Shown piece by piece: positions 22,401 through 44,356 of a stretch of 64,000 nt of DNA. This DNA comes from Shigella phage Henu11: the sequence record OM953433; one strand, 5' to 3'. A model generated the notes under the pieces. The model did no database searches. It was not told the origin of the DNA and saw nothing but the letters and a program-made list of their open reading frames with translations. A program made the translations under genes and the position numbers. Every line of letters begins with the position of its first letter. Position 1 is the stretch's first letter.

Positions 22401-22885
22401 TGAACTACATGGAAATACGAAAATTCGATACAGCGAACGGTGAAGGTGCTCGTGTCAGTCTTTTTGTAGCTGGCTGCAAACATCACTGTGAAGGTTGTTT
22501 TAACAAGGAATCTTGGAAGTTTAATGCTGGTAAAGAGTTTACTTATGCAAACCTTTATGGCATTATGCAGATAATGAATGATGATGGAATCAGTGGTCTA
22601 TCTATCCTTGGTGGAGAGCCACTTGATGATAGGAATGTTCAGACAGTAACAAATATCTGTAAGCGGATTAAAACCGTATACCCAGACAAATCTATATGGT
22701 TATGGACAGGTTACCAGCTACATGAAAAAATCAACTTAGAAGTGATGAAATATGTTGACGTGGTAATAGATGGTAAGTATGATGCTTCTAAACCGACACA
22801 CAAACCGTATCGAGGGTCTGACAATCAAATACTTTGGAGAAAAGAATATGGCTGGCAAGGCGACTGTCAATGGAGAGCAGAATAG
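22394..22885 (+). CDS. nrdG: anaerobic RNR activating protein (radical SAM)
   Basis: 163 aa; CKHHCEGC radical-SAM cysteine cluster; follows nrdD. Confidence 0.8.
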   Translation: MLMNYMEIRKFDTANGEGARVSLFVAGCKHHCEGCFNKESWKFNAGKEFTYANLYGIMQIMNDDGISGLSILGGEPLDDRNVQTVTNICKRIKTVYPDKSIWLWTGYQLHEKINLEVMKYVDVVIDGKYDASKPTHKPYRGSDNQILWRKEYGWQGDCQWRAE

Positions 22886-22910
22886 AGCGGGTTTTCGAAG
22901 AGGTGAGATT

Positions 22911-23168
22911 ATGACCATCTCTTGCAATAGCTCACTGTTTGGAGAGTATAAGGTTAACCCTAACACTCTTGAAGATTGGCAGAAGTACACAAAGAGTCTT
23001 TTTGATACAACTGGATTAGACGCTTTAAAAAAGCTTGCAGAAGTTGAAGTTTTCAGAGTAAAATATAAGTCACACATGTCAAACTTCTACGCAACAAATA
23101 TTGTTGAAGATGACAAAGTGGTTTCCGTAACAGAAGAAGAACTGAAGCAGTTCTGTATTAAACTTTAA
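22911..23168 (+). CDS. hypothetical protein
   Basis: ORF 22770 trimmed to ATG with GAGGTGAG RBS after nrdG. Confidence 0.35.
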   Translation: MTISCNSSLFGEYKVNPNTLEDWQKYTKSLFDTTGLDALKKLAEVEVFRVKYKSHMSNFYATNIVEDDKVVSVTEEELKQFCIKL

Positions 23169-23183
23169 CAGAGAGATATTAAA

Positions 23184-23441
23184 ATGGGAATTTTTTCAAA
23201 CATGAAAGCAGGTTTCTTAGCAGCTCTGGCAAAAGCAGCAGCTATCGTTTCAATGACTGGTAAGCAGGTTGGAGTAGACGCTTCAGCAGTTGCACAGGTT
23301 CTTGCAAGCCAGATTGAACAGCAACCTTACATCCATGTTGGACGTGGTAAAGGTGGTAAGAAGCAAGCTCATCGCCAAACTGGTGCAGCAGCAATTAAAC
23401 GTGCAGCTAAAAAAGCTCGCAACCGTAAACGTAGCAAGTAA
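23184..23441 (+). CDS. small basic protein
   Basis: 85 aa; Ala/Lys/Arg-rich C-terminus. Confidence 0.45.
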   Translation: MGIFSNMKAGFLAALAKAAAIVSMTGKQVGVDASAVAQVLASQIEQQPYIHVGRGKGGKKQAHRQTGAAAIKRAAKKARNRKRSK

Positions 23442-23452
23442 GGATTATTAAA

Positions 23453-23764
23453 ATGGAAAAGGTTTATAACACTCGTAAAATTCAGATTTCTATCCTGTGC
23501 CAGTTTATGGCTGATAAACACAACTCCCACTATTGTGGTACAGGTTTCCTTACTCTAGGTGGTGGCTACATTAGCTTTAAAGAAGCTGTGAAGATGTACA
23601 ATGAGCACCCTGAAGATGACAAAGAGTTGAAACAACTGAAGCTTACTTATGACAAGAAGCGTAAGAAAATTGTATGCTTGAATAACCTTATCAAGCCAAC
23701 TGAAAACGTTTATGATGCAATTGGTGAGGAAGGTTTCTTAAAAGTCTTGAAAATAGCTCAGTAA
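23453..23764 (+). CDS. hypothetical protein
   Basis: 103 aa. Confidence 0.45.
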   Translation: MEKVYNTRKIQISILCQFMADKHNSHYCGTGFLTLGGGYISFKEAVKMYNEHPEDDKELKQLKLTYDKKRKKIVCLNNLIKPTENVYDAIGEEGFLKVLKIAQ

Positions 23765-23777
23765 ACGTATATGATTA

Positions 23778-23806
23778 GGGAACTGTAAAAGGTTCCCTTT
23801 TTATTT
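23778..23806 (+). terminator. rho-independent terminator
   Basis: GGGAAC...GTTCCC hairpin plus T-tract. Confidence 0.6.
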
Positions 23807-23816
23807 TGGAGAAATC

Positions 23817-24332
23817 ATGTACCATTCAAATCTGAAACGTGCTGCTGCAATGTCTGTTCTTCGTCTTGATTTTGATGAGCGTCAAGAGTTCATCGATTCA
23901 CATCAGTATGACCCTTCAAATTCTAACCACATGGTACTTTGGAACCGTGGTAAGTTTCGTGATAGTGCCTTGTTCCAGTACTACCCTCACTATACTATTG
24001 ACAACCTCTATGAATACTGTGTTGTCAAGAACACTATTGCAACTCTTAATAAGCTTTGTAGATATTCTGGAAAGAAAGCTTTCACATTAGGCCACCATAA
24101 GCCCGTGACAAAAGGTGGAGAGCACCATTGCTCGAACTGGTTTATCCAGACTCAAGAAGATAACCAGAAGCAGGGAGAGAAGCTTCCAGAAGCTCCTAAG
24201 ATGACTTGGGAAGAACAGGAAGCATATCTTATAAATAATATGCCACCAATGCTTGACAGGGAATACGCATTTCTGGCAATATCTCTCTTGTTGAAGCTTG
24301 AGACAGTTTATGAGGCAACTTATCATGGCTAG
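23817..24332 (+). CDS. hypothetical protein (His-rich, possible HNH-like)
   Basis: 171 aa; LGHHKPVTKGGEHHCSNWFIQTQEDNQKQG. Confidence 0.4.
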   Translation: MYHSNLKRAAAMSVLRLDFDERQEFIDSHQYDPSNSNHMVLWNRGKFRDSALFQYYPHYTIDNLYEYCVVKNTIATLNKLCRYSGKKAFTLGHHKPVTKGGEHHCSNWFIQTQEDNQKQGEKLPEAPKMTWEEQEAYLINNMPPMLDREYAFLAISLLLKLETVYEATYHG

Positions 24333-24603
24333 AGAACAATGGGATATTATACCACTAGTGAGTGATGGTGGAAATGGTTGTGAGATGTATATGATACGTG
24401 GTCACGTTCCAGATGCACTTGCTATTGAGATGGTAAACCACTATACTGACGGCTCTTACAAAGATTTTGGTGAGCCAAATGTAAAACGCCAATGGGTTAA
24501 ACCTGTACCAGATAGCACAGGAAATTGCAGTGTTCTATACCACACTGTTGACCCAACAAAATGTAAAACAGCTATGGCAGTAACAAACGTAACTTTTGAC
24601 TGA
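24325..24603 (+). CDS. hypothetical protein
   Basis: ORF 24298 trimmed to ATG overlapping upstream stop. Confidence 0.35.
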   Translation: MAREQWDIIPLVSDGGNGCEMYMIRGHVPDALAIEMVNHYTDGSYKDFGEPNVKRQWVKPVPDSTGNCSVLYHTVDPTKCKTAMAVTNVTFD

Positions 24604-24617
24604 GAGAAATATTATGA
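24579..24617 (+). repeat. duplicated leader, copy 1
   Basis: about 39 bp AGTAACAAACGTAACTTTTGACTGAGAGAAATATTATGA identical to 25545-25583. Confidence 0.8.
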
Positions 24618-25063
24618 TTTTTTGTAATTTACAAAAACATGTAATAGAAATTTTGTATAAAGAGTTTGGAACAGAGGAAACATTTGATTCTAATGAGGCT
24701 ATTGACGTACTTCGAAAGAAAAGCCTCTACATTAGAAGCCAGTCAATTAATAATGCTCGTGGTTACTTGACAGCATTACGACAAACTGGTGTTCTAATGA
24801 CTGTAGGTCAGATAAAAAGTAAAGGTAGGCTAAGCATTAACCAGCTAAATAAATCCTTCATGGAAAAGCATATCCAGCTATCACCATTACTGGATGAATC
24901 ACATGAAGAACCTAAAAATAAAGATGAGAACAAAATTGTTGACACAGAACCTGACGTAAGGTACTTTATTGAAAGTGCGATGTTTAATACCTTAGAAGAG
25001 GCTGTTGAGCACTGCAAAAAACACATCATTAAGATTAAACGTGCAAAGATTATTTGGGAATAA
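24614..25063 (+). CDS. hypothetical protein, paralog A
   Basis: 150 aa from ATG in duplicated leader; paralogous to 25093-25542 (shared EFGT..FDSNEA, ARGYLTALR, HIIKIKR.KIIWE). Confidence 0.5.
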   Translation: MIFCNLQKHVIEILYKEFGTEETFDSNEAIDVLRKKSLYIRSQSINNARGYLTALRQTGVLMTVGQIKSKGRLSINQLNKSFMEKHIQLSPLLDESHEEPKNKDENKIVDTEPDVRYFIESAMFNTLEEAVEHCKKHIIKIKRAKIIWE

Positions 25064-25092
25064 TTTTATACACTATCTAAAGAGACAAAGTT

Positions 25093-25542
25093 ATGATTAG
25101 CTCATTTTATGTAACGCTTGTTGAGATACTACACGAAAAATTCGGGACTGATAAGGAATTTGATTCCAATGAAGCGGTGAAAGCTCTAAGAAGCGGTTGT
25201 GATTATCTTAAGAAAATGCCGATAGCAAACTCAAGGTATTATTTATCAGCGTTGCGTAAAGTTGGGGTACTCGTGACTGTCAAGCATGGTAGTAAAAATG
25301 GTGGAGTTCTTTATATCAACCAGTTAAGCAAACCATTTATGGAAAATGAGCCACGACTAGCAAGACTGGTGACTGGTGTACAATACCAAATAAAAACTAC
25401 AGAAATTCCAGAAGTACAAGAGCAAAACCCAAATGTTAAGTACTTTGTTGGTGAAATCATGTTTGATACAATTAATGATGCTGTTGCATACTGTAAAAGC
25501 CATATCATTAAAATCAAAAGAAAGAAGATTATTTGGGAATAA
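25093..25542 (+). CDS. hypothetical protein, paralog B
   Basis: 149 aa; tandem paralog of 24614-25063. Confidence 0.5.
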   Translation: MISSFYVTLVEILHEKFGTDKEFDSNEAVKALRSGCDYLKKMPIANSRYYLSALRKVGVLVTVKHGSKNGGVLYINQLSKPFMENEPRLARLVTGVQYQIKTTEIPEVQEQNPNVKYFVGEIMFDTINDAVAYCKSHIIKIKRKKIIWE

Positions 25543-25544
25543 TA

Positions 25545-25583
25545 AGTAACAAACGTAACTTTTGACTGAGAGAAATATTATGA
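25545..25583 (+). repeat. duplicated leader, copy 2
   Basis: identical to 24579-24617; supplies RBS and ATG of Prs-like gene. Confidence 0.8.
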
Positions 25584-26461
25584 AAACTACTATTCGAGTT
25601 CTACTTAATTCAAATTCCAAAGGTTCTCATCAAGAGACCTTCAACATTATCCAGTTCCCTTCTGGGGAGATTGGTGGTAACTTCTCAGAAGACTTAGTAG
25701 ACTTTGCTGAACATGCTGCTGGTAAGATTGAAAACGTAGTCTTCACAGTACAAGGTTATGACAAAGACACACTCTTTGCATTAGCTATGGCTAAAGAAGC
25801 AATTGACCGTTTGATTCCTCAGAAAGCAACTCTGAAAACTGTTGTCTTTGGATTCTTACCAAATGCTCGCTATGACCGTCACATGTTTAAAGGTGATGCA
25901 GCAGCACTTAAAGTCTTTGCAAATCTTGTAAATGCTATGGAGTTCGATGCAGTATGTGCTCTGGATACTCACAGTAATGTTGCAGAGAATTTGTTTAAGA
26001 GCTTCTACAACCTCCCTCAAAAAGAGGCAGCAGTCCACTTTGCAAGTGACCCACGCATTGATTACTTAGTGGCTCCAGATGCAGGTGCAGCTAAGAAGAC
26101 TGAAGAGGCTGCTAAAGAGGTTGATAAACCTTATATTACAATGGCTAAGGTACGAAACCTGAAAACTGGTGAAATCACTGGTATGCGAATCCTTGATGAT
26201 GTAGACTTGACAGGTAAGACTGTCATGATTCTGGATGATATCTGTGACGGTGGTCGAACCTTTATCGAGGCTGCAAAGTATCTTCGTGAAGCTGGAGCAG
26301 AACGTGTGGAACTGTATGTCACTCATGGGATTTTCTCTAAAGGTGTTGAAAATCTCCTTGACAATGGTATCGACCATATCTACACTACAAACTCACTAGG
26401 GGATGAAAAAGACCGTGGTCTTTCCCACTTCTCACAAGTGACCGTAGCAAATATTGAATAA
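25580..26461 (+). CDS. ribose-phosphate pyrophosphokinase (Prs)-like protein; candidate ADPR-PP synthetase
   Basis: about 293 aa from ATG 25580; Prs-like ALDTHS and PRPP-binding-loop-like VMILDDICDGGRT; TTG-initiated track ORF starts 25562. Confidence 0.8.
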   Translation: MKTTIRVLLNSNSKGSHQETFNIIQFPSGEIGGNFSEDLVDFAEHAAGKIENVVFTVQGYDKDTLFALAMAKEAIDRLIPQKATLKTVVFGFLPNARYDRHMFKGDAAALKVFANLVNAMEFDAVCALDTHSNVAENLFKSFYNLPQKEAAVHFASDPRIDYLVAPDAGAAKKTEEAAKEVDKPYITMAKVRNLKTGEITGMRILDDVDLTGKTVMILDDICDGGRTFIEAAKYLREAGAERVELYVTHGIFSKGVENLLDNGIDHIYTTNSLGDEKDRGLSHFSQVTVANIE

Positions 26462-26469
26462 CAACTTTA

Positions 26470-26485
26470 GGGGCTGAAAAGCCCC
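26470..26485 (+). terminator. hairpin, weak terminator
   Basis: GGGGCT-GAAA-AGCCCC between Prs-like and NAMPT-like genes, poor T-tract. Confidence 0.3.
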
Positions 26486-26505
26486 ACTTTGAGAGAGATA
26501 AAAAG

Positions 26506-28332
26506 ATGACTAAATCACTTTATGCAGTACCAGCAGCACTTAATGCAGATGCCTACAAATCTGGCCATTTCTACCAGTATCCAGATGCTACACAGTATCT
26601 TATGCTGAACTTAACACCTCGTGGAGATAAATGGTTTAACTCTCCGTTAGAGATTGATGGTGTTGTAGCCTTTGGTATTCAGCGTTTTGTAAAAGACTAT
26701 CTGGTAGACCACTGGAATGCAACGTTCTTTGAACGTGATAAGAAAGAAGCCATTGACGAAATCTTGGAAATCATGAATGGTGTCCTTGGTGCAGATGCTA
26801 TTGGTCGTCAACATTGGGAAGAACTTCATGACTTGGGTTACCTACCTGTTGAAGTCTACTCTGTAGAGGAAGGTACAATTGTCCCTATGCGTGTCCCGAT
26901 GATTGTCTTTAAAAACACTGTAGAGGGATTCCATTGGGTAGCTGGTTACCTTGAAGATGCTTTCTCTGCTGAAATCTGGAAGGCTTGTACGATTGCAACT
27001 ATTGCACTGCATTACAAACGTATCTGTAAACAATGGGCTGACAAGACCTGTGACAATGACTTCCATTTACCTTGGCAGTGTCATGATTTTGCAATGCGTG
27101 GTATGTCTGGCTTCACAGATGATGCTTTTAATGCTGTAGGTCACTTGACCAGCTTTAAAGGTACTGACAGCTTCCCTGCTGTGTATACTGCTAAACGTGC
27201 TTATGGTCAGTTTATGACAATCAGTGATATTGGCAACTCTGTACCAGCAACTGAACACTCTGTGATGTGTGCAAACATTTCATGGAATATGAAAGACCTG
27301 ACAGAAGAGGATATTCACTCACAGTACATTATGCAGTCTGAAGGATTACTAGATGCCAAACGTTGGCGTGGTGAGGTAGAAACTTTCCATCGCCTTCTGA
27401 CAGAAGTTTACCCAACTGGTATTGCAAGTGCCGTATCAGATACTTACAACTTCTGGCGTACTGTTACACAGATTCTGCCAGAGCTACGTAATGTAATTCT
27501 GAATCGTGATGGTAAGTTGGTAATTCGTCCAGACTCTGGAGACCCTGTTCACATTGTTACAGGTTACAAAGCCGTTGAATGGGAAACTGCTAAGTCAATG
27601 TTCTACAAGCACATGAAAGGTCTTGCACCAGATAATACCCATCTGCATGACACAATCTTGAATTGTGAAATGTCTGATATTGGTTTTGGGTTCTCTGCTT
27701 GGTTAATCTCTGAAGGTTATGAGATGGTTGTTGAAAATGAAGATTTTGATTATATTGACACAATCAACCTGATTACCGCTCAGAAAACTGGACAGTTTAC
27801 TGTGAAGCGTATGTTAACAGCAGAAATTGATGGAGCTATACACACGCTGTATAACATCTTTGGTGGCACTGTTAACTCCAAAGGGTACAAAGTACTGGAT
27901 GAGCACATTGGGCTAATCTACGGTGATTCTATCACTCTGGAAAGGGCTAATGAGATTCTGTCACGTCTTGCTGATAAAGGTTTTGCAAGTTCTAACGTAG
28001 TGTTTGGTGTAGGCTCATACACCTATCAGTACCTGACTCGTGACACCTTTGCATTTGCTGTTAAAGCAACTCTTGCACAGATGGATGGTCAAGAAATTAT
28101 GCTGGCTAAAGACCCTAAAACTGACAGCGGTCTTAAGAAGTCTGCTTTTGGTGGAGTTGTCCCTATGTGGGATGGTGACAAGCTGGTAGCTGTAGATGGT
28201 TTTGGCTTTGCAGAGTTTGAAGGTGCAATTGACAACTGTCATAGTGCTTTGAAACTGGTATTTAGTAACTCGCAACCTTATGGTTACGTTAACCTGCGTG
28301 ATGTTCGAAATACTATTGACAAGCAACTTTAA
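26506..28332 (+). CDS. nadV: nicotinamide phosphoribosyltransferase (NAMPT)-family protein
   Basis: 608 aa; NADAYKSGHFYQYP, CHDFAMRGMSGF, HLTSFKGTDS, VPATEHSVM, VIRPDSGDP match NAMPT signature regions. Confidence 0.85.
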   Translation: MTKSLYAVPAALNADAYKSGHFYQYPDATQYLMLNLTPRGDKWFNSPLEIDGVVAFGIQRFVKDYLVDHWNATFFERDKKEAIDEILEIMNGVLGADAIGRQHWEELHDLGYLPVEVYSVEEGTIVPMRVPMIVFKNTVEGFHWVAGYLEDAFSAEIWKACTIATIALHYKRICKQWADKTCDNDFHLPWQCHDFAMRGMSGFTDDAFNAVGHLTSFKGTDSFPAVYTAKRAYGQFMTISDIGNSVPATEHSVMCANISWNMKDLTEEDIHSQYIMQSEGLLDAKRWRGEVETFHRLLTEVYPTGIASAVSDTYNFWRTVTQILPELRNVILNRDGKLVIRPDSGDPVHIVTGYKAVEWETAKSMFYKHMKGLAPDNTHLHDTILNCEMSDIGFGFSAWLISEGYEMVVENEDFDYIDTINLITAQKTGQFTVKRMLTAEIDGAIHTLYNIFGGTVNSKGYKVLDEHIGLIYGDSITLERANEILSRLADKGFASSNVVFGVGSYTYQYLTRDTFAFAVKATLAQMDGQEIMLAKDPKTDSGLKKSAFGGVVPMWDGDKLVAVDGFGFAEFEGAIDNCHSALKLVFSNSQPYGYVNLRDVRNTIDKQL

Positions 28333-28346
28333 AACAGTATGATAAG

Positions 28347-28369
28347 AGGCTCCTACGGGAGCCTTTTTA
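28347..28369 (+). terminator. rho-independent terminator
   Basis: AGGCTCC-TACG-GGAGCCT plus TTTTT. Confidence 0.7.
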
Positions 28370-28373
28370 ATTT

Positions 28374-28721
28374 GTGGAGATTACTATGAAAATTAAACAG
28401 ATGAATGTTAATTTAATCATTGAAGAACGTTGGGAAAACATTAAGCGTCCTGAAGATGGTCATAAGTTTATCAATGAACTGTTTCAAGCAGCACAATCAG
28501 AGTTAGCTTCTGAGATTTATACAACGGTTACTTTGAAGGTCTATATCAAAGGTCTTCCACAGAACCATCAAGAAGCTCTTGATTTGTTTCAAGAAGAATT
28601 TTACAATCCAAACAAAAAGATACTTGAGAATAGTTTTGCAGTATCTTCGAGTATTGTTCATGACAGAAGTTTTGTCCTATTCAGAACTATAGGAGATAAG
28701 GTATGCAAGGTTATTGGTTAG
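28374..28721 (+). CDS. hypothetical protein
   Basis: 115 aa with GGAG RBS. Confidence 0.45.
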   Translation: MEITMKIKQMNVNLIIEERWENIKRPEDGHKFINELFQAAQSELASEIYTTVTLKVYIKGLPQNHQEALDLFQEEFYNPNKKILENSFAVSSSIVHDRSFVLFRTIGDKVCKVIG

Positions 28722-28882
28722 AAATTGTTCTTTCACTCGGTTGTATAGTTGCTATTGCAATGTTACTATGCAAGTACTTCTCAGAGACTGAACCTTGTGA
28801 TGAGTGTGAAGGTTCTGGGGTAGTTGGTATAGGTCATTGTTGCCCTTACTGTAATGGAACTGGAAAGAAATTTAAAAAGTAA
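28703..28882 (+). CDS. small membrane-anchored zinc-ribbon protein (59 aa)
   Basis: not in ORF track; N-terminal TM helix then CDECEGSG and CPYCNGTG (CxxCxGxG) pairs. Confidence 0.4.
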   Translation: MQGYWLEIVLSLGCIVAIAMLLCKYFSETEPCDECEGSGVVGIGHCCPYCNGTGKKFKK

Positions 28883-28883
28883 C

Positions 28884-28914
28884 TTGACAGTGGCATCTAT
28901 AAAATTATATAGTT
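28884..28914 (+). promoter_or_regulatory. sigma70-like promoter upstream of rIIA-like gene
   Basis: TTGACA then about 17 bp then TATATA/ATATAG. Confidence 0.4.
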
Positions 28915-28944
28915 TGCCACATCGACAACTAAGGAGATATTCTT

Positions 28945-31317
28945 ATGCGCATGGTAAATGACCACGCAACGGTAATTAAAAGCTCAAGTACACTGGAAAC
29001 CTCTCAGGCTCAGATTAAGATGACACCTGAAATGTTCAGTCTTCTAAGCTCAGGTGTTTACACATATAAAGAACGTGCTGTAATTCGTGAATTGTCATGT
29101 AACGCAGTAGATGCTCACATTGATTCTGGTAACGTTGATAAACCTTTCTTGGTTCACTTACCAACTCGTTTCGAGCCATTCTTTGAAGTTCGTGACTTTG
29201 GTACAGGACTGACTCATGATAAAGTTATGAAACTTTACATGACCTATGGAGAATCTACAAAGAACGATTCAAACGACTACATTGGTGCTATGGGTATCGG
29301 TTCAAAGTCCCCATTTGCAATTGCTCAGTCATTCACTGTATCAAGCTATGTTGATGGTGTAGTTAACAAATACTCAGTTTACCTTGAGAATGGTATCCCT
29401 CAAGTAACTAAGTTGACTACTAACCCAACTACAGAGCCAAATGGTTTAGCTGTTCGAGTAGCGGTATCCGATAACCGTATCAACAAGTTTCATGAAGAAG
29501 CGAGCAATGTATACTCGTACTTTAAAGTTAAGCCAGAGTGTAATGTTGAGTACTATGACATTCTTGAAGCAATGACTTCCATTTCTCGTGAAGATGGTGT
29601 CTATGATGCAATGAAGTACAAAGAGAACTGGCGCTCAAATAGTAACAGCGTCCATTTCAATGTAATCATGGGTAACATTGCTTATCCGGTTGAAATGGGT
29701 GAGTTGCTTGGCTCAGAGTTTACAAACATTCTGCCTCAGTTCTTCCGTAGTGCTGTAGACCTTGTTAACATCTACATGCCAATTGGTTCAGTGGCTATTG
29801 CTGCATCTCGTGAAGCATTGCAGATGAATGAGACCACTAAGACCAAGATTGTTGAAGCTGTGAAGAAAATCACTAAGACAATCGTAGAAGATGTGGTAAA
29901 AGAGATTGCTAACAAGCCAACTCTGATTGATGCTGCTCAAGCCTATGATACCATGAGGAAGGAGGCTCGTGAAATCTTTATTCACGTCCAAGATTCTCTG
30001 GAATGGCAAGGCCAGAACTTGAAAAAGCTTGAACAAAAACTGTTAGGTATCCGTCGTGGTCAGTTAACTGAAGCAGATGGTTCTCCGTCATTCTTGAAAG
30101 ATGATGCAGGTAACTTGAGGCTTGACAAAGATGGTAATCCAGTTCCTAATATTGGTAATCTGTATGAACCTGTAGCATACTACAAGTACAGCAGTCTGGA
30201 GAACCGTATTCGAGCAACTTCAGCAACTTATTCACAAGATGCAGCAATGTTTAGTATCTTTGGTGCAATGAGTAAAGACAAGTTGAGCAACTATTTGTTC
30301 CTTATTAATGACCGTCGAAACAAGAACGGGTCTGAGAAGACAACTGGTAAAAACCAGATTATCCGTGGAGCTTGCCGTGACCGTGAACAGGAAGACTCTA
30401 ACTTCCGTCGCTACAATGGTATTGCTTTCTTGTTCAGCAGTCAGCAGCAATTTGATGAGTTTGTAGCTTTGCATATGCTTGACAAGAGTCTGTTAAGTGT
30501 GCATACAATGTCATCTAAAGAGCACCACTATGAAAAACGTACTATTGTACGTGGTGTTGTAAAACTGTATAAAGCATTTATATGTCCAAATACTTACATG
30601 ATTCGTTATACAGAGGTTAAAGAGAACTTTGATGAGATTGAAGAACCACAACTGTATATCAAAGCACAGAGTGATGAAGTGATTGGTGGAATCTTCTCAT
30701 GTTCACCAGAACGTGCTGCAACGTTGATGACAGAGTTAACTGGACAGTCAGTTTATGTCTTCCGTAAAGCCAACTGGAAAAAGATTCCTGAAGACTGGAC
30801 AGAAGTCAATGAACAAGTGATGAAAGATTTCATTGATGCTACACATTGGATTGAGTATCATCGTTTCTTGACTCACCAATATATGACTAATAATCATGAT
30901 ATTACTGATTGTAATGTGATTTCTCGAAACTTTATGTTTGCTGATAAGCGTAAGTCCAGAGGCCACATTTACAGTAAAGACTTTAAGAAGACTATTTTCT
31001 TAGAGGGGAATGAAGAGGCTATAGAAGCAATGTTTGGACGCTTGGCATACACTGCTGCACCAGTTGCTTACAAAGATATTACCAGCACTCTTGATACCAT
31101 TCGCAGGAATATGAGAGGCTCTTGTAAGCCAAGAAAGGTTCTGGATAACGCTAAGAAGCGTCTTGAAAGTAAGTTCAAAGATTACTTTGAGAAACGCCGT
31201 AAAGAAAACTTCTTGCTTTCTAATCTGGATTGGAATAAAGTATCACCCGTCGAAGTTGGTAAGTTTTTAGGTTTTGACACTAAGAGCATTCCAGAAGATA
31301 CTGTATGCTGGGATTAA
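28945..31317 (+). CDS. rIIA: rIIA-like protein
   Basis: 790 aa; N-terminal GHKL-ATPase-like VIRELSCNAVDA and DFGTGL motifs; followed by rIIB-like gene. Confidence 0.7.
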   Translation: MRMVNDHATVIKSSSTLETSQAQIKMTPEMFSLLSSGVYTYKERAVIRELSCNAVDAHIDSGNVDKPFLVHLPTRFEPFFEVRDFGTGLTHDKVMKLYMTYGESTKNDSNDYIGAMGIGSKSPFAIAQSFTVSSYVDGVVNKYSVYLENGIPQVTKLTTNPTTEPNGLAVRVAVSDNRINKFHEEASNVYSYFKVKPECNVEYYDILEAMTSISREDGVYDAMKYKENWRSNSNSVHFNVIMGNIAYPVEMGELLGSEFTNILPQFFRSAVDLVNIYMPIGSVAIAASREALQMNETTKTKIVEAVKKITKTIVEDVVKEIANKPTLIDAAQAYDTMRKEAREIFIHVQDSLEWQGQNLKKLEQKLLGIRRGQLTEADGSPSFLKDDAGNLRLDKDGNPVPNIGNLYEPVAYYKYSSLENRIRATSATYSQDAAMFSIFGAMSKDKLSNYLFLINDRRNKNGSEKTTGKNQIIRGACRDREQEDSNFRRYNGIAFLFSSQQQFDEFVALHMLDKSLLSVHTMSSKEHHYEKRTIVRGVVKLYKAFICPNTYMIRYTEVKENFDEIEEPQLYIKAQSDEVIGGIFSCSPERAATLMTELTGQSVYVFRKANWKKIPEDWTEVNEQVMKDFIDATHWIEYHRFLTHQYMTNNHDITDCNVISRNFMFADKRKSRGHIYSKDFKKTIFLEGNEEAIEAMFGRLAYTAAPVAYKDITSTLDTIRRNMRGSCKPRKVLDNAKKRLESKFKDYFEKRRKENFLLSNLDWNKVSPVEVGKFLGFDTKSIPEDTVCWD

Positions 31318-36710: not shown

Positions 36711-36756
36711 CCCTCCAAAGTTTGAGTTTAAAATCTCAGGTAAGGAGGGCTTTTTC
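36711..36756 (+). terminator. rho-independent terminator
   Basis: CCCTCC...GGAGGG long hairpin plus TTTTT. Confidence 0.55.
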
Positions 36757-36940
36757 ATTTTAAATTTGTGCAGGTATAGTTGCATAGAACTCTGGACAGA
36801 TTTCTTTAGCTGAACTCCAAAGGGAAAATTCATTTCAAATTTGTGCAGGTTTAGACTCCAAAGGGGTTTTTCATTTTCAATCTGTGCAGATGCAGTTGGA
36901 CTCCAAAGGGAAAATTCATTTTCAGTTTGTGCAGGTAGGT
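36749..36940. repeat. four direct ~40-bp repeats (CTCCAAAGGG..TTCATTT..TTTGTGCAGGT)
   Basis: copies near 36749, 36824, 36856, 36900; TGTGCAGGT also at 32566. Confidence 0.7.
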
Positions 36941-37137: not shown

Positions 37138-37187
37138 TTTGCATCAACGGGAAACATCCCAACAATCCTAAACTGGAGAATCTGAAA

Positions 37188-37394
37188 ATGTTATATCAAC
37201 GTGAGTTAATGATTGTTGACAACAACAAAACAAATAAACGTCGTTTCTATATGCTAATTTGTGATGTTTGGCAACGTATCTCAGAAAAAGATTTTGATAA
37301 ATATGTTAATACGTCAATCAGGTCAGATTGTTACTTGACAAATCATACAAGACAGTTTACAAGACATACAGCAATTTATTATTACAACGTTTAA
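37188..37394 (+). CDS. small array protein
   Basis: 68 aa; preceded by conserved leader. Confidence 0.45.
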   Translation: MLYQRELMIVDNNKTNKRRFYMLICDVWQRISEKDFDKYVNTSIRSDCYLTNHTRQFTRHTAIYYYNV

Positions 37395-37406
37395 GAAGGC
37401 TTGACA

Positions 37407-37568
37407 ATGATTAAAGAAAACGATGTAATACAATACAAAGATTTAGACGGATACCTAAAAATTGGTAAAGTCTTCTATCTCTATAAATCTGCTATGGGTA
37501 ATAATTGTGTAGCCCTTACAAATGGCGATAAAATAACCATGAAAGATTTTATAAAAATTATTGCATAA
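37407..37568 (+). CDS. small array protein (53 aa)
   Basis: short ORF not in track; followed by type-B hairpin. Confidence 0.3.
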   Translation: MIKENDVIQYKDLDGYLKIGKVFYLYKSAMGNNCVALTNGDKITMKDFIKIIA

Positions 37569-37652
37569 AGTACTTTACATGGGGTTTAAAAGCTAGTATC
37601 TTAAGCCCCAGATAAAGAGCTTTACCAACAATCCTAAACTGGAGAATCTGAA

Positions 37653-38033
37653 ATGAAATATCGTGCGCCTAAATTTATCAACAAAGAAAACTTTCGTAGT
37701 ATCTTAGAGGAAACTATGAAAGAAAACTTCAAAGGAAAAATAATTGTTGTTCACGCTTACAATTTTAAGTATGATGTTAATGGTAACCGTATCAACCACT
37801 ACAAAGCTACTATGCTTGACGGTACATTATCCGGTGAAAAAGCTATCATAAATGCTATTGCAGGACGTGGTAAAACTGTGATACGATGCGAAAAAAGACG
37901 CTATCAAGGCGGAAAATATGGATATGAAGATGCAATGTATCATCTTGATAAAATGGGGTATGATGTAGAGAAAGCTGGAGTATCCCAAACTATTGGTAGT
38001 GACGGCTACGTTACAGTTTTCAAAATTAATTAA
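37653..38033 (+). CDS. small array protein
   Basis: 126 aa; conserved leader. Confidence 0.5.
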   Translation: MKYRAPKFINKENFRSILEETMKENFKGKIIVVHAYNFKYDVNGNRINHYKATMLDGTLSGEKAIINAIAGRGKTVIRCEKRRYQGGKYGYEDAMYHLDKMGYDVEKAGVSQTIGSDGYVTVFKIN

Positions 38034-38123
38034 ATAAAGTCCTTTACATGGGGTTTATAGTTAGATAAGATAAGCCCCAGATAAAGAGCTTTACCAACAA
38101 TCAACCTAAACTGGAGTATCAAA

Positions 38124-38381
38124 ATGGCTACTATCAAAAACATCATTGTATCTGCAAAATCTCGTGATGACGCTCGCGCAACTGCTAAAAAACTAAATGG
38201 TAAAGTGGTTGACAACGGAAAAGAATCTGCTGTAAGATGGGGCGTGAAATGTGATAAGGAAATTACTTTAAAACGTAGTTCCTATGACCTTTTCAAAGGT
38301 GTAAAAGCAATCGGTAGAACTAACGTCTACACGAAGAAAGGTTATAAAATGCACTTATCATTAACTGACAATTTAATCTGA
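38124..38381 (+). CDS. small array protein
   Basis: 85 aa; conserved leader. Confidence 0.5.
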   Translation: MATIKNIIVSAKSRDDARATAKKLNGKVVDNGKESAVRWGVKCDKEITLKRSSYDLFKGVKAIGRTNVYTKKGYKMHLSLTDNLI

Positions 38382-38473
38382 TAAAGTGCTTTACATGGGG
38401 TTTATAAGTTGCTAGTATAAGCCCCAGATAAAGAGCTTTACTAACCAATAGTCCTAAACTGGAGAATCTTAAT

Positions 38474-38986
38474 ATGTCATACGTTGAAGCTACCTTTGAA
38501 GTTCAAAAAGAAAAATTCACTATCATCTATGAAGCTGTTAATATTTGTGAAGCATCCCATTGTGTGGAAAATTGGAAGTTTACCGATGAGCACAAAGGCG
38601 GGGTTACAATCAAACTTAAAAATCCAGAGCGTAACGGGTACAAATATGCAATTCCACAGCATTACAGCCTTTCTCAATTGATGAGTGATTATGCTAAACA
38701 AGGCCGCGAAAATCCATCTATAGAGGCTTACAAGAGCTTACAAGATGAATTACAAAGAGATTTAGAGGCTAACAGCTATGTACTATTTGCAAAGGTAGAA
38801 GATAAAGAAGGTAATACGGTATTAAATAGCTTTTCACTTGCTTATGGTTTCGATTGGTGTTATCTTGACGGGGAAGATTTAGATTCACGATTAGAAGAGG
38901 AAGTGTCGAACTCCGATGGAGAATCTGAAGTAATGGAACGTTTGGAAGACTTGAAAGATTCTGTTATGAATATCTTTAATATCTAA
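38474..38986 (+). CDS. small array protein (acidic C-terminus)
   Basis: 170 aa; conserved leader. Confidence 0.5.
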   Translation: MSYVEATFEVQKEKFTIIYEAVNICEASHCVENWKFTDEHKGGVTIKLKNPERNGYKYAIPQHYSLSQLMSDYAKQGRENPSIEAYKSLQDELQRDLEANSYVLFAKVEDKEGNTVLNSFSLAYGFDWCYLDGEDLDSRLEEEVSNSDGESEVMERLEDLKDSVMNIFNI

Positions 38987-39069
38987 AGTGCTTTACATGG
39001 GGCTATCAAGTTGATAAGATAGCCCCAGATAAAGAGCTTTACCAACAATCCTAAACTGGAGAATCTAAA

Positions 39070-39366
39070 ATGTTTATTGCCGCAAACGTTAGAACTAAAT
39101 TAAGCCAGCTATTAAGCAATATTCAATTCATTGAATCCATGCGCCGTACCTCTGAAGCCGTAGAATGGTATCACGGAAAGATTGACAAAAGGGAAGTTGT
39201 GATTTGTGTATGGAGCTTTTGTAAAGAATACAGAAAGCCGTTGCTTCAGATAGATATCTATGATAATGCTAATAAATCAGCTATTAAATCCACAAAAGAT
39301 ATGGTAGATTCTTATGAAATTAGTCACACTGGTAAACTATTCCACAAAGGTAAAAACAAATGCTAA
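39070..39366 (+). CDS. small array protein
   Basis: 98 aa; conserved leader. Confidence 0.5.
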   Translation: MFIAANVRTKLSQLLSNIQFIESMRRTSEAVEWYHGKIDKREVVICVWSFCKEYRKPLLQIDIYDNANKSAIKSTKDMVDSYEISHTGKLFHKGKNKC

Positions 39367-39707
39367 TCACATACACTGCAATTTTTATCTCTATTGTGGC
39401 GCTCTATAAAGCCTTGCAAGCGCACAGTATAGCTAATAAGGCACTTACAAGGGATTTAAAAATAAATCTTGTACGGGGCTTTTTAGAGCGTTTGAGCTTA
39501 GAACAATTGAAACGTTTAGAGATGAGCTTTCGATTCAAAGCAGAGACATACCGGATTGATAACATCCTAGATGGTGATTTTAAATTAATCAGTGATTATG
39601 ACATACTTCTTGAGTCAATTCAAGATATAAACCTGAAAGATTATTATATTGTAATAGCACAAGAAATTAATAAAAAAGAGCTTGCAATGCAGAATCAAAA
39701 CAAGTAA
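39360..39707 (+). CDS. small array protein (N-terminal TM; C-terminus ..AMQNQNK encoded by cassette)
   Basis: 115 aa. Confidence 0.45.
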   Translation: MLITYTAIFISIVALYKALQAHSIANKALTRDLKINLVRGFLERLSLEQLKRLEMSFRFKAETYRIDNILDGDFKLISDYDILLESIQDINLKDYYIVIAQEINKKELAMQNQNK

Positions 39708-39765
39708 AGTATTCATCAACGGGGCAAGATAGAAGCCCCAACAATCCTAAACTGGAGAATCTAAA

Positions 39766-40038
39766 ATGTATACTACTAATGACGGTCGCACTTTGAACGT
39801 AACTTTAAAACACTATGTAGACGGTGTATTAAACTTTGAAGAGTTAAGAGCAGAACAGCAACTATTAGATTGGCAAGTAGCAGGTTTACAAAAAACCGCT
39901 ACAGGATATGGAAAGAAAATTCCTACATCTTGGAAAGTTCGATACCTTGGAAAGTTACGCAGAATTTATCAAGATGTTTATAGTAATAGCGGTGTAAGTT
40001 ACATTATTGTTAGTGGTAAAAAGTTGTATTTAGTCTAA
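39766..40038 (+). CDS. small array protein
   Basis: 90 aa; conserved leader. Confidence 0.5.
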   Translation: MYTTNDGRTLNVTLKHYVDGVLNFEELRAEQQLLDWQVAGLQKTATGYGKKIPTSWKVRYLGKLRRIYQDVYSNSGVSYIIVSGKKLYLV

Positions 40039-40127
40039 TAAATTGCTTTACATGGGGTTATCAAGTTGATAAGATAGCCCCAGATAAAGAGATTTACCAA
40101 CAATCAACCTAAACTGGAGTATCAAAA

Positions 40128-40535
40128 ATGACTAATGTTAATCACAAAGAAGTTGCAATTTTGAAAGCACGTTTGACCATTAACCGCATCAACATTGTAA
40201 CATCAGCAGCGCCAGACGAAACACTGCATAATATCATCGGCAAAATTCAGGGCGTAGTAGTAGACACAAAACAGCTTAAAGAGTCCTTGCAAGATGTAGC
40301 AGCAGGGGCTATAATTGACGGTGCTCAATATGAGATGAAGGAAATGCTGTCAAAGTCAAAAGTAATGAATAAAGAACTTGACTTGAAAATGTTTAGATTT
40401 GCTGTTAAAGTGTGGCTATGTGTTGATTTTGATGCAAACTTTGCAATTGCTGATTTCTTTGCAACATGGTTACAGCGTAACTTACCGGTCGAAGTTTTCC
40501 GTGAAATCTGCGATGCAATTTATTCAGAGATTTGA
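40128..40535 (+). CDS. small array protein
   Basis: 135 aa; conserved leader. Confidence 0.5.
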   Translation: MTNVNHKEVAILKARLTINRINIVTSAAPDETLHNIIGKIQGVVVDTKQLKESLQDVAAGAIIDGAQYEMKEMLSKSKVMNKELDLKMFRFAVKVWLCVDFDANFAIADFFATWLQRNLPVEVFREICDAIYSEI

Positions 40536-40620
40536 TTGACATTGCAAAAGCATAGTAGTAGAGTACTCATCAACGGGGCAAGTTAGAAGCCCCAACAATC
40601 CTAAACTGGAGAATCTGAAA

Positions 40621-40869
40621 ATGTTTAATATGTTGAATATCCCTGACACTTGCCGACTCTTAACACAATTTGATAACCTTGGTAAGCCGTTTTTATATCA
40701 TATGCCAGATAACACTGCAAAAACTTACAGTTACATTGTAAACCGTTTTACGGCTTATGGTTCAAAGTATGGCTATAATGTCAAGACTCAAAAGGTGACT
40801 TTGTTCACAAGTATTGAAGAGTTACCAACTGTTGCCGTTAAACTAATCTTTACAAAGAAAACTAAATAA
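40621..40869 (+). CDS. small array protein
   Basis: 82 aa; conserved leader. Confidence 0.5.
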   Translation: MFNMLNIPDTCRLLTQFDNLGKPFLYHMPDNTAKTYSYIVNRFTAYGSKYGYNVKTQKVTLFTSIEELPTVAVKLIFTKKTK

Positions 40870-40953
40870 AGTCCTTTACATGGGGTTTAAAAGCTAGTAT
40901 ATTAAGCCCCAGATAAAGAGCTTTACCAACAATCCTAAACTGGAGAATCTAAA

Positions 40954-41511
40954 ATGAAATGCTTCCACGGTACTACACAAGAAAACTTCGTAAATCTTAT
41001 TAATGGCGGTGATAAACCATCAGGAGCTTGGAATTGCTCTGATATGGATGGATGTTTTTATGTCTACCCTGTTAGCAAGTTCTATGATGTAGAAAATCTG
41101 GATGACGAACAAATCATAGATGAAGGTATTAGAAACGCGCTTGATAGCGCAAGCATTACAGCAGCCTATCAAATGAAGTCACAAAAACTTGTCATCTTGG
41201 AACTAGATATTCCAGAAGATGATTTACAAGATGACTGGAGTTGTGAGAACATGAGCGACGTCGCAAGCTTTACAGAATATTTCGATAAAGAATGGATTAA
41301 AAAGGTTTACACAACTGAATTTAATGCTATGTATGCGCCTTTCTTTGTCCCTAACCTGAATAATAGGAACTTGGGTTATATACCGGATGAGTTACACAAC
41401 ATTGCGGCAATAGTTCAACGTAGTGATGAGATGAATAATGTTTATATTGATATCTTCGAGACTATGCAATGTAACGTAGCAGAAACGGCTATAAACGACT
41501 TAACAGCATAA
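40954..41511 (+). CDS. small array protein
   Basis: 185 aa; conserved leader. Confidence 0.5.
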   Translation: MKCFHGTTQENFVNLINGGDKPSGAWNCSDMDGCFYVYPVSKFYDVENLDDEQIIDEGIRNALDSASITAAYQMKSQKLVILELDIPEDDLQDDWSCENMSDVASFTEYFDKEWIKKVYTTEFNAMYAPFFVPNLNNRNLGYIPDELHNIAAIVQRSDEMNNVYIDIFETMQCNVAETAINDLTA

Positions 41512-41574
41512 ACGATAGAATCATACCAGTTCACTAGAAAAGCCCCGCACAGGGGCTTACAAGAGGCTTAAAAG

Positions 41575-41805
41575 ATGCTTACAACAATCTATCTTATCCT
41601 ATCTATCTGCAATGGTTCACAATGTGACTTTAAAGGTCTGGAAGAGTTTACAGGTAGCGAAAATAATGCTATTGTTGCCTGTCAGATAGCAAGGCAAGAC
41701 TACCCAACATCGGATGATATCCAATGTTACTATAAATCAGAAGATGATGAAGGGATTTACTTTGATAGTGTGAATGGTGAATATGAGATTCTTATAGAAA
41801 AGTAG
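41575..41805 (+). CDS. small protein with hydrophobic N-terminus
   Basis: 76 aa; lacks conserved leader. Confidence 0.4.
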   Translation: MLTTIYLILSICNGSQCDFKGLEEFTGSENNAIVACQIARQDYPTSDDIQCYYKSEDDEGIYFDSVNGEYEILIEK

Positions 41806-41895
41806 TTGACACTAAAAACGCAAACAAGTAAAGTATTCATCAACGGGAAGGAAACTTCCCCACTAAACAAAATTCCTAAACTGGAGAATCTGAAA

Positions 41896-42237
41896 ATGGC
41901 CTATGTAACAATTATCACCGATAAAGAAAATTCGTCATGGTCTACCCAAGTTAACGACAAAATGACACCTATGCAGTGTCTCAAATACTTTGAGCAGTGG
42001 AACAGGGGAGAAGATGTAAGCCCCTTTCAAGTGATGCAGATTGTACATGTTGACAATGAAGGGAATAAAACTACCCTTAACACTGAGTACTATACTACAC
42101 GTTTCGAGACTCGCAAATCAGCTATGCAGGGTTTAAGAGAAAAGGGATATAGTCACATTGCCGCGCTCATTTGGTCTGATTTGCTTAAAAAACAGTCATT
42201 AACCTATGTTAAGCCAGAAAAAATCTTTATAAGCTAA
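41896..42237 (+). CDS. small array protein
   Basis: ORF 41806 trimmed to ATG directly after conserved leader. Confidence 0.5.
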   Translation: MAYVTIITDKENSSWSTQVNDKMTPMQCLKYFEQWNRGEDVSPFQVMQIVHVDNEGNKTTLNTEYYTTRFETRKSAMQGLREKGYSHIAALIWSDLLKKQSLTYVKPEKIFIS

Positions 42238-42432
42238 TCAACAACTTATAAAAATCTTTTGAAAAACTATTGACAATGCCCCTTGACAAGTGTAACTTTG
42301 TTCGAGGGGGTTTATCTAAAAGGATTCACTTAAAAGATTCTTTATAGATAAGCGTAAAAAGTACTTGCAAAGGTTTAATCATATCTATATAGTATCTTCA
42401 AAAGGCAACTTCCTAAACTGGAGAATCACAAA

Positions 42433-42573
42433 ATGTTAGATATCATTAAAAACCCTATCCTTTGCGGTATGATTGTTTCTGTTGTGTTGCCATTAGCAAT
42501 GCTCATCATTGGTGAAATCTCAGATAAACTTTTTGATAAAAAACTACTTGCAATACAGAATCAAAACAAGTAA
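42433..42573 (+). CDS. small membrane protein (46 aa; C-terminus ..AIQNQNK)
   Basis: not in track; conserved leader; hydrophobic core. Confidence 0.3.
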   Translation: MLDIIKNPILCGMIVSVVLPLAMLIIGEISDKLFDKKLLAIQNQNK

Positions 42574-42637
42574 AGTATTTATCAACGGGGAGGGAGACTT
42601 CCCCACTAAACAAAATTCCTAAACTGGAGAATCTGAA

Positions 42638-43165
42638 ATGAACAAGTTCCAAGCAATTAATCATATCCGTTCCAATGCAGTAATGAGCAAGCCAGTAAAA
42701 GACACCTTCGAATTCCGCTGTAATGATAAGTTGTTTGCAGTCATTACAAAAGGGGAAGATAAAAAGTATTATGTACATCGCCAAAACGTTAAGTTAGTAA
42801 CAGCAGACAACTTTATGAAAGCTGTTGCAACAATCCTACCGGATTTTATGGAACTGGTAGCAGAACTTTGTGAACACTGCATCAAGTCATCAAAGGCAGA
42901 ATTAAACCGCTTTAAAATGGCTTATGAGCGTTCTATCAAGTCCCATAACATGTATATCATGCCATTGGCTTTTGGTACTCAGGCAATGGGAACAGGTTGT
43001 CATCCTTTCCACCTTTACGATGTAGAAAGCATTTACCTTAGTGAGTCAAAAGATATTGATTTTAGTTTACAGTTAGGACAAGCATTAAATGATATGATTA
43101 AATTACACGAAAAATCCGTAAAAGATATGCAAAAAGAGCTTGACGAAATCATCGTAAATCTATAA
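42638..43165 (+). CDS. small array protein
   Basis: 175 aa; conserved leader. Confidence 0.5.
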   Translation: MNKFQAINHIRSNAVMSKPVKDTFEFRCNDKLFAVITKGEDKKYYVHRQNVKLVTADNFMKAVATILPDFMELVAELCEHCIKSSKAELNRFKMAYERSIKSHNMYIMPLAFGTQAMGTGCHPFHLYDVESIYLSESKDIDFSLQLGQALNDMIKLHEKSVKDMQKELDEIIVNL

Positions 43166-43225
43166 AGTACTTATCAACGGGGAGGGAATGACCTTCCCCA
43201 ACAATCCTAAACTGGAGACTAGAAA

Positions 43226-43489
43226 ATGAATAATCAAGAAATCACTATCCTGTTACAAATCGGTACTGACAAAGAAGATATCCAACTTTGCAAACGTATT
43301 GAAAGTGATTGGTTCAACGGTGAAATCATCGCAGAATCTTATGAAGTAGTCGGATTCATGAATGGTGAAGTTGTAAGCCATTTCGGTTTAACTAAATCTG
43401 AAGCCGTTGCAAAGTATGACGTTTTATCTTGTGAGATTCTTACAAAATACAATGAAAAAAGACTTGCAACTTATGCAGCAATGAATTAA
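43226..43489 (+). CDS. small array protein
   Basis: 87 aa; conserved leader. Confidence 0.5.
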   Translation: MNNQEITILLQIGTDKEDIQLCKRIESDWFNGEIIAESYEVVGFMNGEVVSHFGLTKSEAVAKYDVLSCEILTKYNEKRLATYAAMN

Positions 43490-43555
43490 TATTACTTTCA
43501 ACGGGGAGGGAGACTTCCCCACTAAAACAAAATTCCTAAACTGGAGAATCTGAAA

Positions 43556-43807
43556 ATGGCTACTATCCGCGCAACTGTTAACAATTTTGGCTTCCATGTA
43601 TTAGATGTTAAATTTGATATGGTTGGAACTGGTGATGCTTTCGGTATGATTGAAATGTGTCTGAAGGCAACTATTCAGGACTACAATCCATCGGAAACAT
43701 TCTGGAAAGAAACTAAACAGGAAGTTTTAAAGGATGGTGTATCTTCTTACTATTGGGGTGATTCTCTTATCACGCTTTACTACCAAAAATTTGGTGTGAT
43801 TAACTAA
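43556..43807 (+). CDS. small array protein
   Basis: 83 aa; conserved leader; last gene before convergence region. Confidence 0.5.
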   Translation: MATIRATVNNFGFHVLDVKFDMVGTGDAFGMIEMCLKATIQDYNPSETFWKETKQEVLKDGVSSYYWGDSLITLYYQKFGVIN

Positions 43808-43871: not shown

Positions 43872-44295
43872 ACGTCTTCCTAGAATCTTACCAGACATTT
43901 AGAACAATAACTCTATAGCTTACTCTATATCCTCTTATCAAATCAACTTAAATATAAGCCCATAACCCGAAAGGGAAGGGCAATCCCTAAAACGCTCTAT
44001 AACGCTCTATACGGGCTTATCATCTCATCTTAAGCAATCATATTAACCTACTCTTAAAAGCCCTTTATAGAGCTTTCTAGAGCCTTAAAAGAATCTTATA
44101 AGGGTATAAGCTTTATTATCTCGTTAGTATCTTGTGAATGGTTAAACAGGGGCTTGAAAGTTACTTAATAATGTGTTATGGGGAACTAAAAAGAGCTTAA
44201 AAGTAACGTAAAAGATGCTTAAAAGTAACGTAAAAGTTAGCCCCCTTTACATTCTCTTAACAAAATCTTAACAAATGCAACATAGTTATGCTTAT

Positions 44296-44356
44296 TAGAG
44301 ACTTGTTAGCCCCTTGTTAAATCCTTGTTAGAGGTATGTTAAGAGCTTGTTAGACT
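44296..44356. repeat. five 11-bp phased repeats (cTTGTTAg)
   Basis: TTGTTA cores at about 44304, 44315, 44326, 44337, 44348; 11-bp spacing. Confidence 0.75.

Follow-up and report, generated by a model that had tools for sequence, protein, structure and literature searches.

A two-gene cassette nested in a duplicated gene X-prs junction of the Mooglevirus-like Shigella phage Henu11

In the 64,000-nucleotide stretch of Shigella phage Henu11 DNA that we analysed (sequence record OM953433; hereafter, the window), two tandem paralogous genes, A and B, separate a small gene, X, from a prs-like gene, and an exact 39-bp direct repeat stands at both ends of the pair. Comparison with relatives shows that these 39 bp are the native junction of prs, composed of the X stop, a ribosome-binding site (RBS) and the prs ATG, and that a second copy of this junction serves paralog A. 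Our preferred account, to which we give a probability of about 0.7, is that the cassette is nested within a duplicated junction, that A is translated from the copy of the prs start, that the leader copies provide homology for recombination, and that the downstream repeat copy, R2, has occasionally been re-templated.

Layout of the locus and distribution of the cassette

The best matches of the region were Citrobacter phage BSwM KMM2 (96%) and Mordin (94%), both from the genus Mooglevirus (Ounavirinae), and the Henu11 genome is accordingly that of a Mooglevirus-like Ounavirinae phage. Paralogs A and B are identical to the proteins gp29 and gp30 of Shigella phage Henu11. The features of the locus are the following:

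23777..23798, + strand: terminator-like hairpin 5' of the gene block
24325..24603, + strand: gene X, 92 aa, phrog_4726; R1 contains its last 8 codons and its stop
24579..24617, + strand: repeat copy R1, with the X 3' end, TGA stop, GAGAG RBS and the ATGA starting paralog A
24614..25063, + strand: paralog A, 149 aa, phrog_29478; ortholog of Pr103Blw gene A and of gene 3 of the four-gene arrays
24618..25583 (equivalently 24579-25544), + strand: 966-bp indel unit, absent in ~94% of related phage records
25064..25092, + strand: spacer between A and B, including a ribosome-binding site of its own, AAAGAGAC
25093..25542, + strand: paralog B, 149 aa, phrog_29478; shares 46% identity with A
25545..25583, + strand: repeat copy R2, with an X 3' end that no longer codes, RBS and the ATGA starting prs
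25580..26461, + strand: prs-like gene of the ribose-phosphate pyrophosphokinase family; Pfam Pribosyltran and Pribosyl_synth, phrog_619
26506..28332, + strand: nicotinamide/nicotinate phosphoribosyltransferase-like (nadV-like) gene, 608 aa
28344..28367, + strand: terminator-like hairpin 3' of the nadV-like gene

The prs-like gene is the first and the nadV-like gene the second gene of a NAD/PRPP module, the function of the latter being taken from the annotation of its orthologues and from Pfam NAPRTase matches. The two hairpins bound a presumed transcription unit containing the cassette, within which A and B would be co-transcribed with X, prs and the nadV-like gene. Two genes 5' of the cassette, a conserved 171-aa protein (23817-24332) shows weak HNH-endonuclease matches (phrog_2214, E 2.6e-5; IscB HNH region, E 3e-3), and in Moogle and ESCO50 the interval from prs to nadV holds an HNH homing endonuclease (L004 4205-4696; L005 5255-5746). 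Such nearby nucleases could stimulate local mosaicism.

The repeat, AGTAACAAACGTAACTTTTGACTGAGAGAAATATTATGA, is exact over 39 nt at 24579-24617 and 25545-25583, with a spacing of 966 nt; thus, the initial annotation was correct in describing an identical segment with RBS and ATG before paralog A and before the prs-like gene. Its first 25 nt correspond to the last 8 codons of gene X (VTNVTFD) and the TGA stop, the coding end of X making up two thirds of the element. Both copies carry a GAGAG Shine-Dalgarno-like site 7 nt 5' of the ATG and end in ATGA, where the ATG is the start of paralog A in R1 and of prs in R2. The ATG of A follows the X stop by 10 nt, at the place that prs occupies in most relatives, and in Henu11 a distance of 37 nt separates the B stop from the start of prs. 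An in-frame TTG further upstream in the repeat (24596 and 25562) would add MTERNI; we rejected it as the true start, as no RBS precedes it and the GAGAG site is placed before the ATG.

Two further observations concern the edges of the paralogs. An imperfect 18-nt inverted repeat at 24610-24646 (TATTATGATTTTTTGTAA / TTACAAAAACATGTAATA, 78% complementary) spans the start and first codons of paralog A and, on visual inspection, is apparently not conserved in Felixounavirus-type A genes. At 25540-25569, the double stop of B (TAA TAA) is followed by the fossil X tail (VTNVTFD*) in the frame of B, which is probably a coincidence, because in Mordin the spacer is 1 nt shorter and the frame is different.

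Among 225 matching records, only 4 covered positions 23800-26600 contiguously, while most aligned in two pieces with a span exactly 966 bp shorter. Precisely these 966 bp between the repeat copies are missing from Henu12 and from more than 200 further records, which retain one copy of the element, with X joined directly to prs; the presence/absence polymorphism that had been predicted for this locus is thus real. The element is present as a single, unbroken copy, with X stop, RBS and prs ATG together, in Henu12, Moogle, Silverhawkium, Felix O1 and Ro111lw. Since the same leader directly precedes prs in the cassette-less Felix O1, Moogle and Henu12, prs keeps its ancestral start region, and the proposal of the initial annotation that the translation start of the NAD module had been rewired has to be abandoned. 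An assembly artefact was ruled out by the identical layout in independent isolates and metagenome assemblies.

The A/B family is encoded in 15 of ~251 Ounavirinae records with gene X (tblastn with A), and every Ounavirinae copy found sits at the X-prs locus. The number of family members between X and prs is 0, 2 or 4, always at one site. Two genes are present in Pr103Blw and many metagenomic Felixounavirus contigs, and four, in the order long, short, long, short, in ESCO50, finno, Seyj1-1 and others; among the matches listed in a DNA-pattern scan of metagenomes, L061, a four-gene array, was the one real locus. Adjacent same-strand paralogs whose copy number is polymorphic among relatives make the locus a tandem array. 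No relatives were found in IMG/VR when scanned with the family alignment, and no account of the cassette was found in the literature on Henu11/Henu12 or on Felixounavirus/Mooglevirus indels.

It is also important to consider the sequences between array members. In Felixounavirus-type loci, the A-B and gene2-gene3 spacers, AACTTCT-ATTGAGAG and AACATTTGATTAGG, are decayed copies of the X-end/RBS leader, AACTTTTGATTGAGAG (shuffle p <= 0.0055), and the A-B spacer of Henu11 resembles the leader at the level of the RBS only (p about 0.15). Repeats at unit borders are therefore found in both groups, being exact at the outer borders in Henu11 and decayed at some inner borders in the Felixounavirus-type arrays. 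The position of these leader copies suggests that the unit of duplication was the leader with one gene or the leader with a gene pair, and the pattern points to unequal recombination at the leader copies.

Some loci show additional changes. In the Logan contig L009 (SRR14751623; 3527-3901), the cassette is present, prs and the nadV-like gene are lost, and the first 24 prs codons are fused in frame to a homologue of the gene at 28374-28721; because this contig lacks both genes, the NAD module, too, is dispensable and deletable. The prs gene is split into ORFs of 162 aa and 130 aa in L008 4467-5347 (KMM2) and L165 2467-3347, with one base missing in KMM2 at window position 26022, possibly reflecting a pseudogene or a sequencing error. 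Among the otherwise near-identical Felixounavirus-type contigs L011-L018, the length of a (GA)n tract in the RBS of the first leader, ~20 nt before gene A, varies from GAGAGAGAGAA to GAGAGAGAGAGAGAGAGAA, which could be slippage altering the RBS spacing.

The paralogs: family, age and predicted fold

The two tandem ORFs, which the initial annotation called clear paralogs on inspection of the sequence, are indeed paralogous: they share 65 of 141 positions (46% identity, E 3e-34), B aligning with A over nearly its full length. HMM and structure searches, from which an indication of their nature had been expected, assigned both proteins end to end to phrog_29478 (E ~1e-85; about 2e-85), a family with no annotated function, and recovered a winged helix in the model of A. 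The family is very small: it forms 8 clusters at 90% identity, and an exhaustive profile search of 1.84 billion representative proteins returned only 4 matches. One of these, P0010, is a distant single-copy relative located in an unrelated phage contig beside rIIB, SLT and PNKP-like genes. Within the family, we distinguish A-type, B-type, intermediate gene-1-type and short-type paralogs, some of which look chimeric, with 28-58% identity between types.

The proportion of synonymous differences (pS) between A and its Pr103Blw orthologue is 0.79, as compared with 0.51 for the flanking gene X and 0.57 for prs, and between A and B synonymous sites are saturated. Because of this saturation, the duplication of the paralogs is not recent. 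Thus, of the recent duplication or recombination whose footprint the initial annotation saw here, the repeat stands as a scar, while the recency of the paralog duplication does not, given the 46% identity. The divergence values show that the genes themselves are ancient; only the repeat looks young. The dN/dS values of 0.05-0.22 indicate purifying selection, under which A and B have most likely been kept beside genes of nucleotide and NAD metabolism.

Searches of Pfam, NCBIfam, PADLOC and PDB sequences with A, B and X gave nothing above threshold for A/B function or for X. The AlphaFold2 model of A, built on 9 sequences, has a mean pLDDT of 74, rising to about 90 for residues 1-90. It consists of an N-terminal canonical winged helix and a small beta-beta-alpha unit with a basic tail, the two being connected by a variable, disordered linker. 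The topology of the N-terminal part, H1-b1-H2-H3-b2-b3, matches that of solved winged helices, and Foldseek agrees, with a probability of about 1 and weak E-values; in a fold search of BFVD, only family members and generic winged-helix proteins were recovered. The C-terminal unit, modelled at low confidence, contains the most conserved sequence in the family, [YF]F..x..F....A[VI]E[HY]CK..[IL]I..K..K[IV][IV]WE, a module for which no known relatives were found.

In its predicted N-terminal topology, A resembles winged-helix proteins of the MarR/SarA/Fur/PadR kind, the best superpositions being with SarX and with Fur-family and MarR-family proteins. Unlike such regulators, A belongs to no Pfam or NCBIfam profile and has an extra conserved C-terminal module, its DNA binding being only predicted; searches of Pfam, NCBIfam and PDB returned no sequence-family support for it. 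Overall, the model induces us to propose that A is most likely a small winged-helix protein that binds nucleic acids, and that the same holds for B by homology.

The downstream repeat copy and the mosaic block

Altogether, 32 Mooglevirus-type cassette-bearing loci were gathered, Henu11 included, although many of them are metagenomic and may re-sample few strains, so that the counts below overstate the number of independent observations. In every cassette locus of this set but Henu11, R1 reads ...ACATTTGTAAC..., and R2 occurs in four forms:

R2 form alpha, Henu11 and KMM2: AAGTAACAAACG..., matching the Henu11 X end
R2 form alpha', 18 loci: AATTTACAAACGTAACTTTTGACTGAGAGAAATA..., with the ACAAACG fossil kept
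R2 form beta, 11 loci: CCAAAAACTTCATTACTTTATTGATTGAGAG..., like the Felixounavirus-type spacer on visual comparison
R2 form gamma, Mordin: CATAACATTTG..., with Mordin's own X allele

The 18 loci of form alpha' combine the ACAAACG fossil in R2 with an X end of their own that reads ACATTTG, and KMM2 has one allele in R1 and the other in R2. Identical R1 and R2 are confined to 2 of the 32 loci, Henu11 (39 bp) and Mordin (37 bp), each for a different X allele; the exact match of the 39-bp copies is peculiar to the Henu11 genome. In Mordin, R2 carries the phage's own ACATTTG allele, with three adjacent substitutions matching its own R1. This looks like the signature of conversion, an event that we infer from the shared allele. 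Taken together, the forms of R2 indicate that it is a fossil of the X end, which normally drifts and has been re-templated from the X-leader junction at least once.

Why the copies are identical in Henu11 becomes clearer when this phage is compared with Henu12. There are 0 differences between the two over 23200-24440 (1.2 kb) and 25584-28990 (3.4 kb), as opposed to 39 substitutions within 24445-24588, a stretch that precedes the 966-bp cassette. In other words, the 3' part of X differs by 27% from that of an otherwise identical phage. The Henu11 allele of this stretch is rare: its best match in the phage collection is 87%, and its identity to all other cassette loci is about 73-75%. The cassette itself is >99% identical between Henu11 and KMM2. 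The simplest reading of such a pattern is that one imported block brought the 3' end of X along with R1, A, B and R2; for a donor similar to KMM2 on the downstream side, the right edge of the block would fall within 25555-25636, inside R2 or shortly behind it. R1 would then equal R2 exactly in Henu11 because the imported block carries the cassette together with the rare X allele that R2 copies, this R2 being either an old copy preserved or a refreshed one.

A second patch divergent from the otherwise identical Henu12 backbone lies at 22500-23200, covering the 3' end of an nrdG-like gene and the following ORF. Over all the relatives in the comparison, it shows 8-46 differences per 100 nt, and it points to another patch of recombination.

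The same observations allow a different history, in which the 39 bp are the pristine scar of one recent insertion into an X-prs junction of the Henu11 allele type, the copies never having been homogenised since. It would explain why R2 of Henu11 and KMM2 equals the rare X-end allele of Henu11, and the retention of ACAAACG in 18 further loci, whatever their own X allele, fits one founding duplication. Nevertheless, we consider this history unlikely. The cassette genes have diverged between genera at least as much as the flanking genes, and Felixounavirus-type cassettes occupy the same site, with spacers of 26-35 nt versus 36-38 nt and weak X-end similarity. The presence of these same-site cassettes with similar spacers makes the insertion appear older than the repeat looks. 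Moreover, R2 of Mordin, with the other X allele, needs a second event.

How the cassette may be gained, lost and multiplied

The nested-junction account, which we favour, can be laid out as a scenario. A cassette of two anciently diverged paralogs would have come to lie inside the X-prs junction, leaving the junction present on each side. The first duplication, which placed an X 3' end downstream of B, would need an illegitimate join or a Campbell-type insertion. In this layout, paralog A is translated from the copy of the prs start region, with prs retaining the same region but following B. The leader copies might act as portable homology: unequal or homologous recombination between them would delete the cassette cleanly, giving the common state of 0 copies; it would also lead to expansion, as in the four tandem genes of some Felixounaviruses; and it would move the cassette with flanking sequence between co-infecting relatives. 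The non-coding R2 would normally drift and occasionally be re-templated from the X-leader junction. It should be kept in mind that 39 bp is short for efficient homologous recombination, which counts against leader-mediated exchange.

It is tempting to go further and to suppose that leaders and paralogs together form a self-perpetuating plug-in, in which circles or unequal exchange shuttle the cassette from one co-infecting Ounavirinae phage to another via ~40 bp of gene-junction homology and the winged-helix paralogs are new, fast-diversifying regulators of host takeover or anti-defence, tuned through their copy number (0, 2 or 4). We regard this extension as distinctly improbable and mention it as speculation.

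Another reading takes the 39-bp element for a regulatory consensus (a promoter, an RBS leader or an RNA structure) that stands before many genes and is kept identical by selection. The element does contain a functional-looking RBS and start codon, decayed leaders precede some members of the Felixounavirus-type arrays, and a real family of repeated leaders exists elsewhere in the window, at 37-43.5 kb. However, the element itself occurs in two copies only in the whole 64-kb window, allowing for up to 3 mismatches, and in 0 copies in 100 dinucleotide-preserving shuffles; its 23-nt core gives the same result, and its 16-nt RBS core shows no significant enrichment in the window. With two copies only, it is not a general regulatory motif, and the initial annotation was right to prefer a scar to a motif preceding many unrelated genes. 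Promoter and terminator scans found no promoter-like site in 24579-24617 or 25545-25583, nor did the repeat contain any terminator-like one; across the region, sites of both kinds are as frequent as chance predicts, with promoter-like ones not exceeding their number in shuffles. With a folding energy of -1.6 kcal/mol, the 39-mer is less stable than shuffles (z +0.57), as expected for an open translation start region. Finally, the two thirds that derive from the coding end of X have no evident role downstream of B and drift there in most relatives. The element is thus neither a motif repeated throughout the genome nor a promoter, a terminator or an RNA structure, and the regulatory reading, already largely refuted, has only a very slight chance of being correct.

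Least credible of all is an autonomous mobile element (a transposon or a homing-endonuclease/integrase cassette) with the repeat as its target-site duplication: the unit is discrete, patchily distributed and bounded by direct repeats, and HNH-like genes lie nearby (the 171-aa protein; the prs-nadV gap of Moogle and ESCO50), but neither A nor B carries a signature of a transposase, integrase or nuclease above threshold in Pfam, PHROGs, NCBIfam or PADLOC (the sub-threshold Transposase_29 match scores 15.6 bits against a cut-off of 27), an inverted-repeat search found no pairing between the ends of 24579-25583, all Ounavirinae copies are at one locus, and 39 bp is well above the usual target-site duplications of 2-14 bp.

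As for known systems, the closest analogue in the way of working is the PeSL (promoter-early stem-loop) cassettes of T4-type phages, which combine a strong sigma70-like promoter with a terminator stem-loop and are present in many copies in hyperplastic regions (Arbiol et al. 2010, PMC2839356; Comeau et al. 2014, PMC4122927). Recombination between neighbouring PeSLs has been proposed to cause gene gain, loss and shuffling, and mini-circles were shown (PMC2839356; PMC4122927). In both cases, short intergenic repeats flank non-essential ORFs, and indels of close relatives coincide with them. The Henu11 element differs in having no promoter, no stem-loop and two copies only, being instead a duplicated gene end with an RBS and a start codon.

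Tandem arrays formed by unequal crossing-over offer a second parallel, with head-to-tail paralogs at one locus, 0/2/4 copies, repeats at the junctions and chimeric-looking paralogs; in contrast to such arrays, the Henu11-type paralogs are old and strongly diverged, and only the flanking leaders are nearly identical. Phage morons and other accessory indels are similar in that an optional block lies between two conserved genes and is dispensable in most relatives. Classical morons, however, carry their own promoter and terminator, while the A/B cassette has no detectable ones and apparently depends on the operon in which it sits and on the copied translation start.

We would also like to comment on the other repeats of the window. 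Nearly identical leaders, CAACAATCCTAAACTGGAGAATCTGAAAATG (families D2-D6 and D9-D11), stand before each of about ten genes at 37148-43588, and many of these leaders follow a promoter-like sequence and a GC stem-loop (AAAGT.CTTTACATGGGGTTTA...AAGCCCCAGATAAAGAGCTTTACCAAC). By analogy, this looks like a true family of repeated, PeSL-like regulatory cassettes in a region of small ORFs. Two clusters of short direct repeats, possibly iteron-like or made up of binding sites, adjoin that region at 36733-36936 and 43985-44466; they comprise four copies of 43 nt (D13) and repeats of CCCTAGAAAGCCCTATAAAGAGCTATACAGG (D14). On the + strand, 26 tRNA genes form an array at 55464-60863, and the shared T-arm and acceptor ends of tRNAs account for several repeat families in the window.

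Overall, the X-prs cassette represents ordinary gain, loss and multiplication of phage accessory genes by recombination and no new kind of system. What it offers is a clean and well-sampled case of accessory-gene turnover in Felix O1-like and Moogle-like phages of therapy and biocontrol, where one gene junction would provide both a translation start and the homology for the insertion, multiplication and traceless removal of a cassette. In addition, nature supplies a nearly isogenic pair, a Henu11-like phage with the cassette and Henu12 without it, which may be used to find the role of this orphan winged-helix family.
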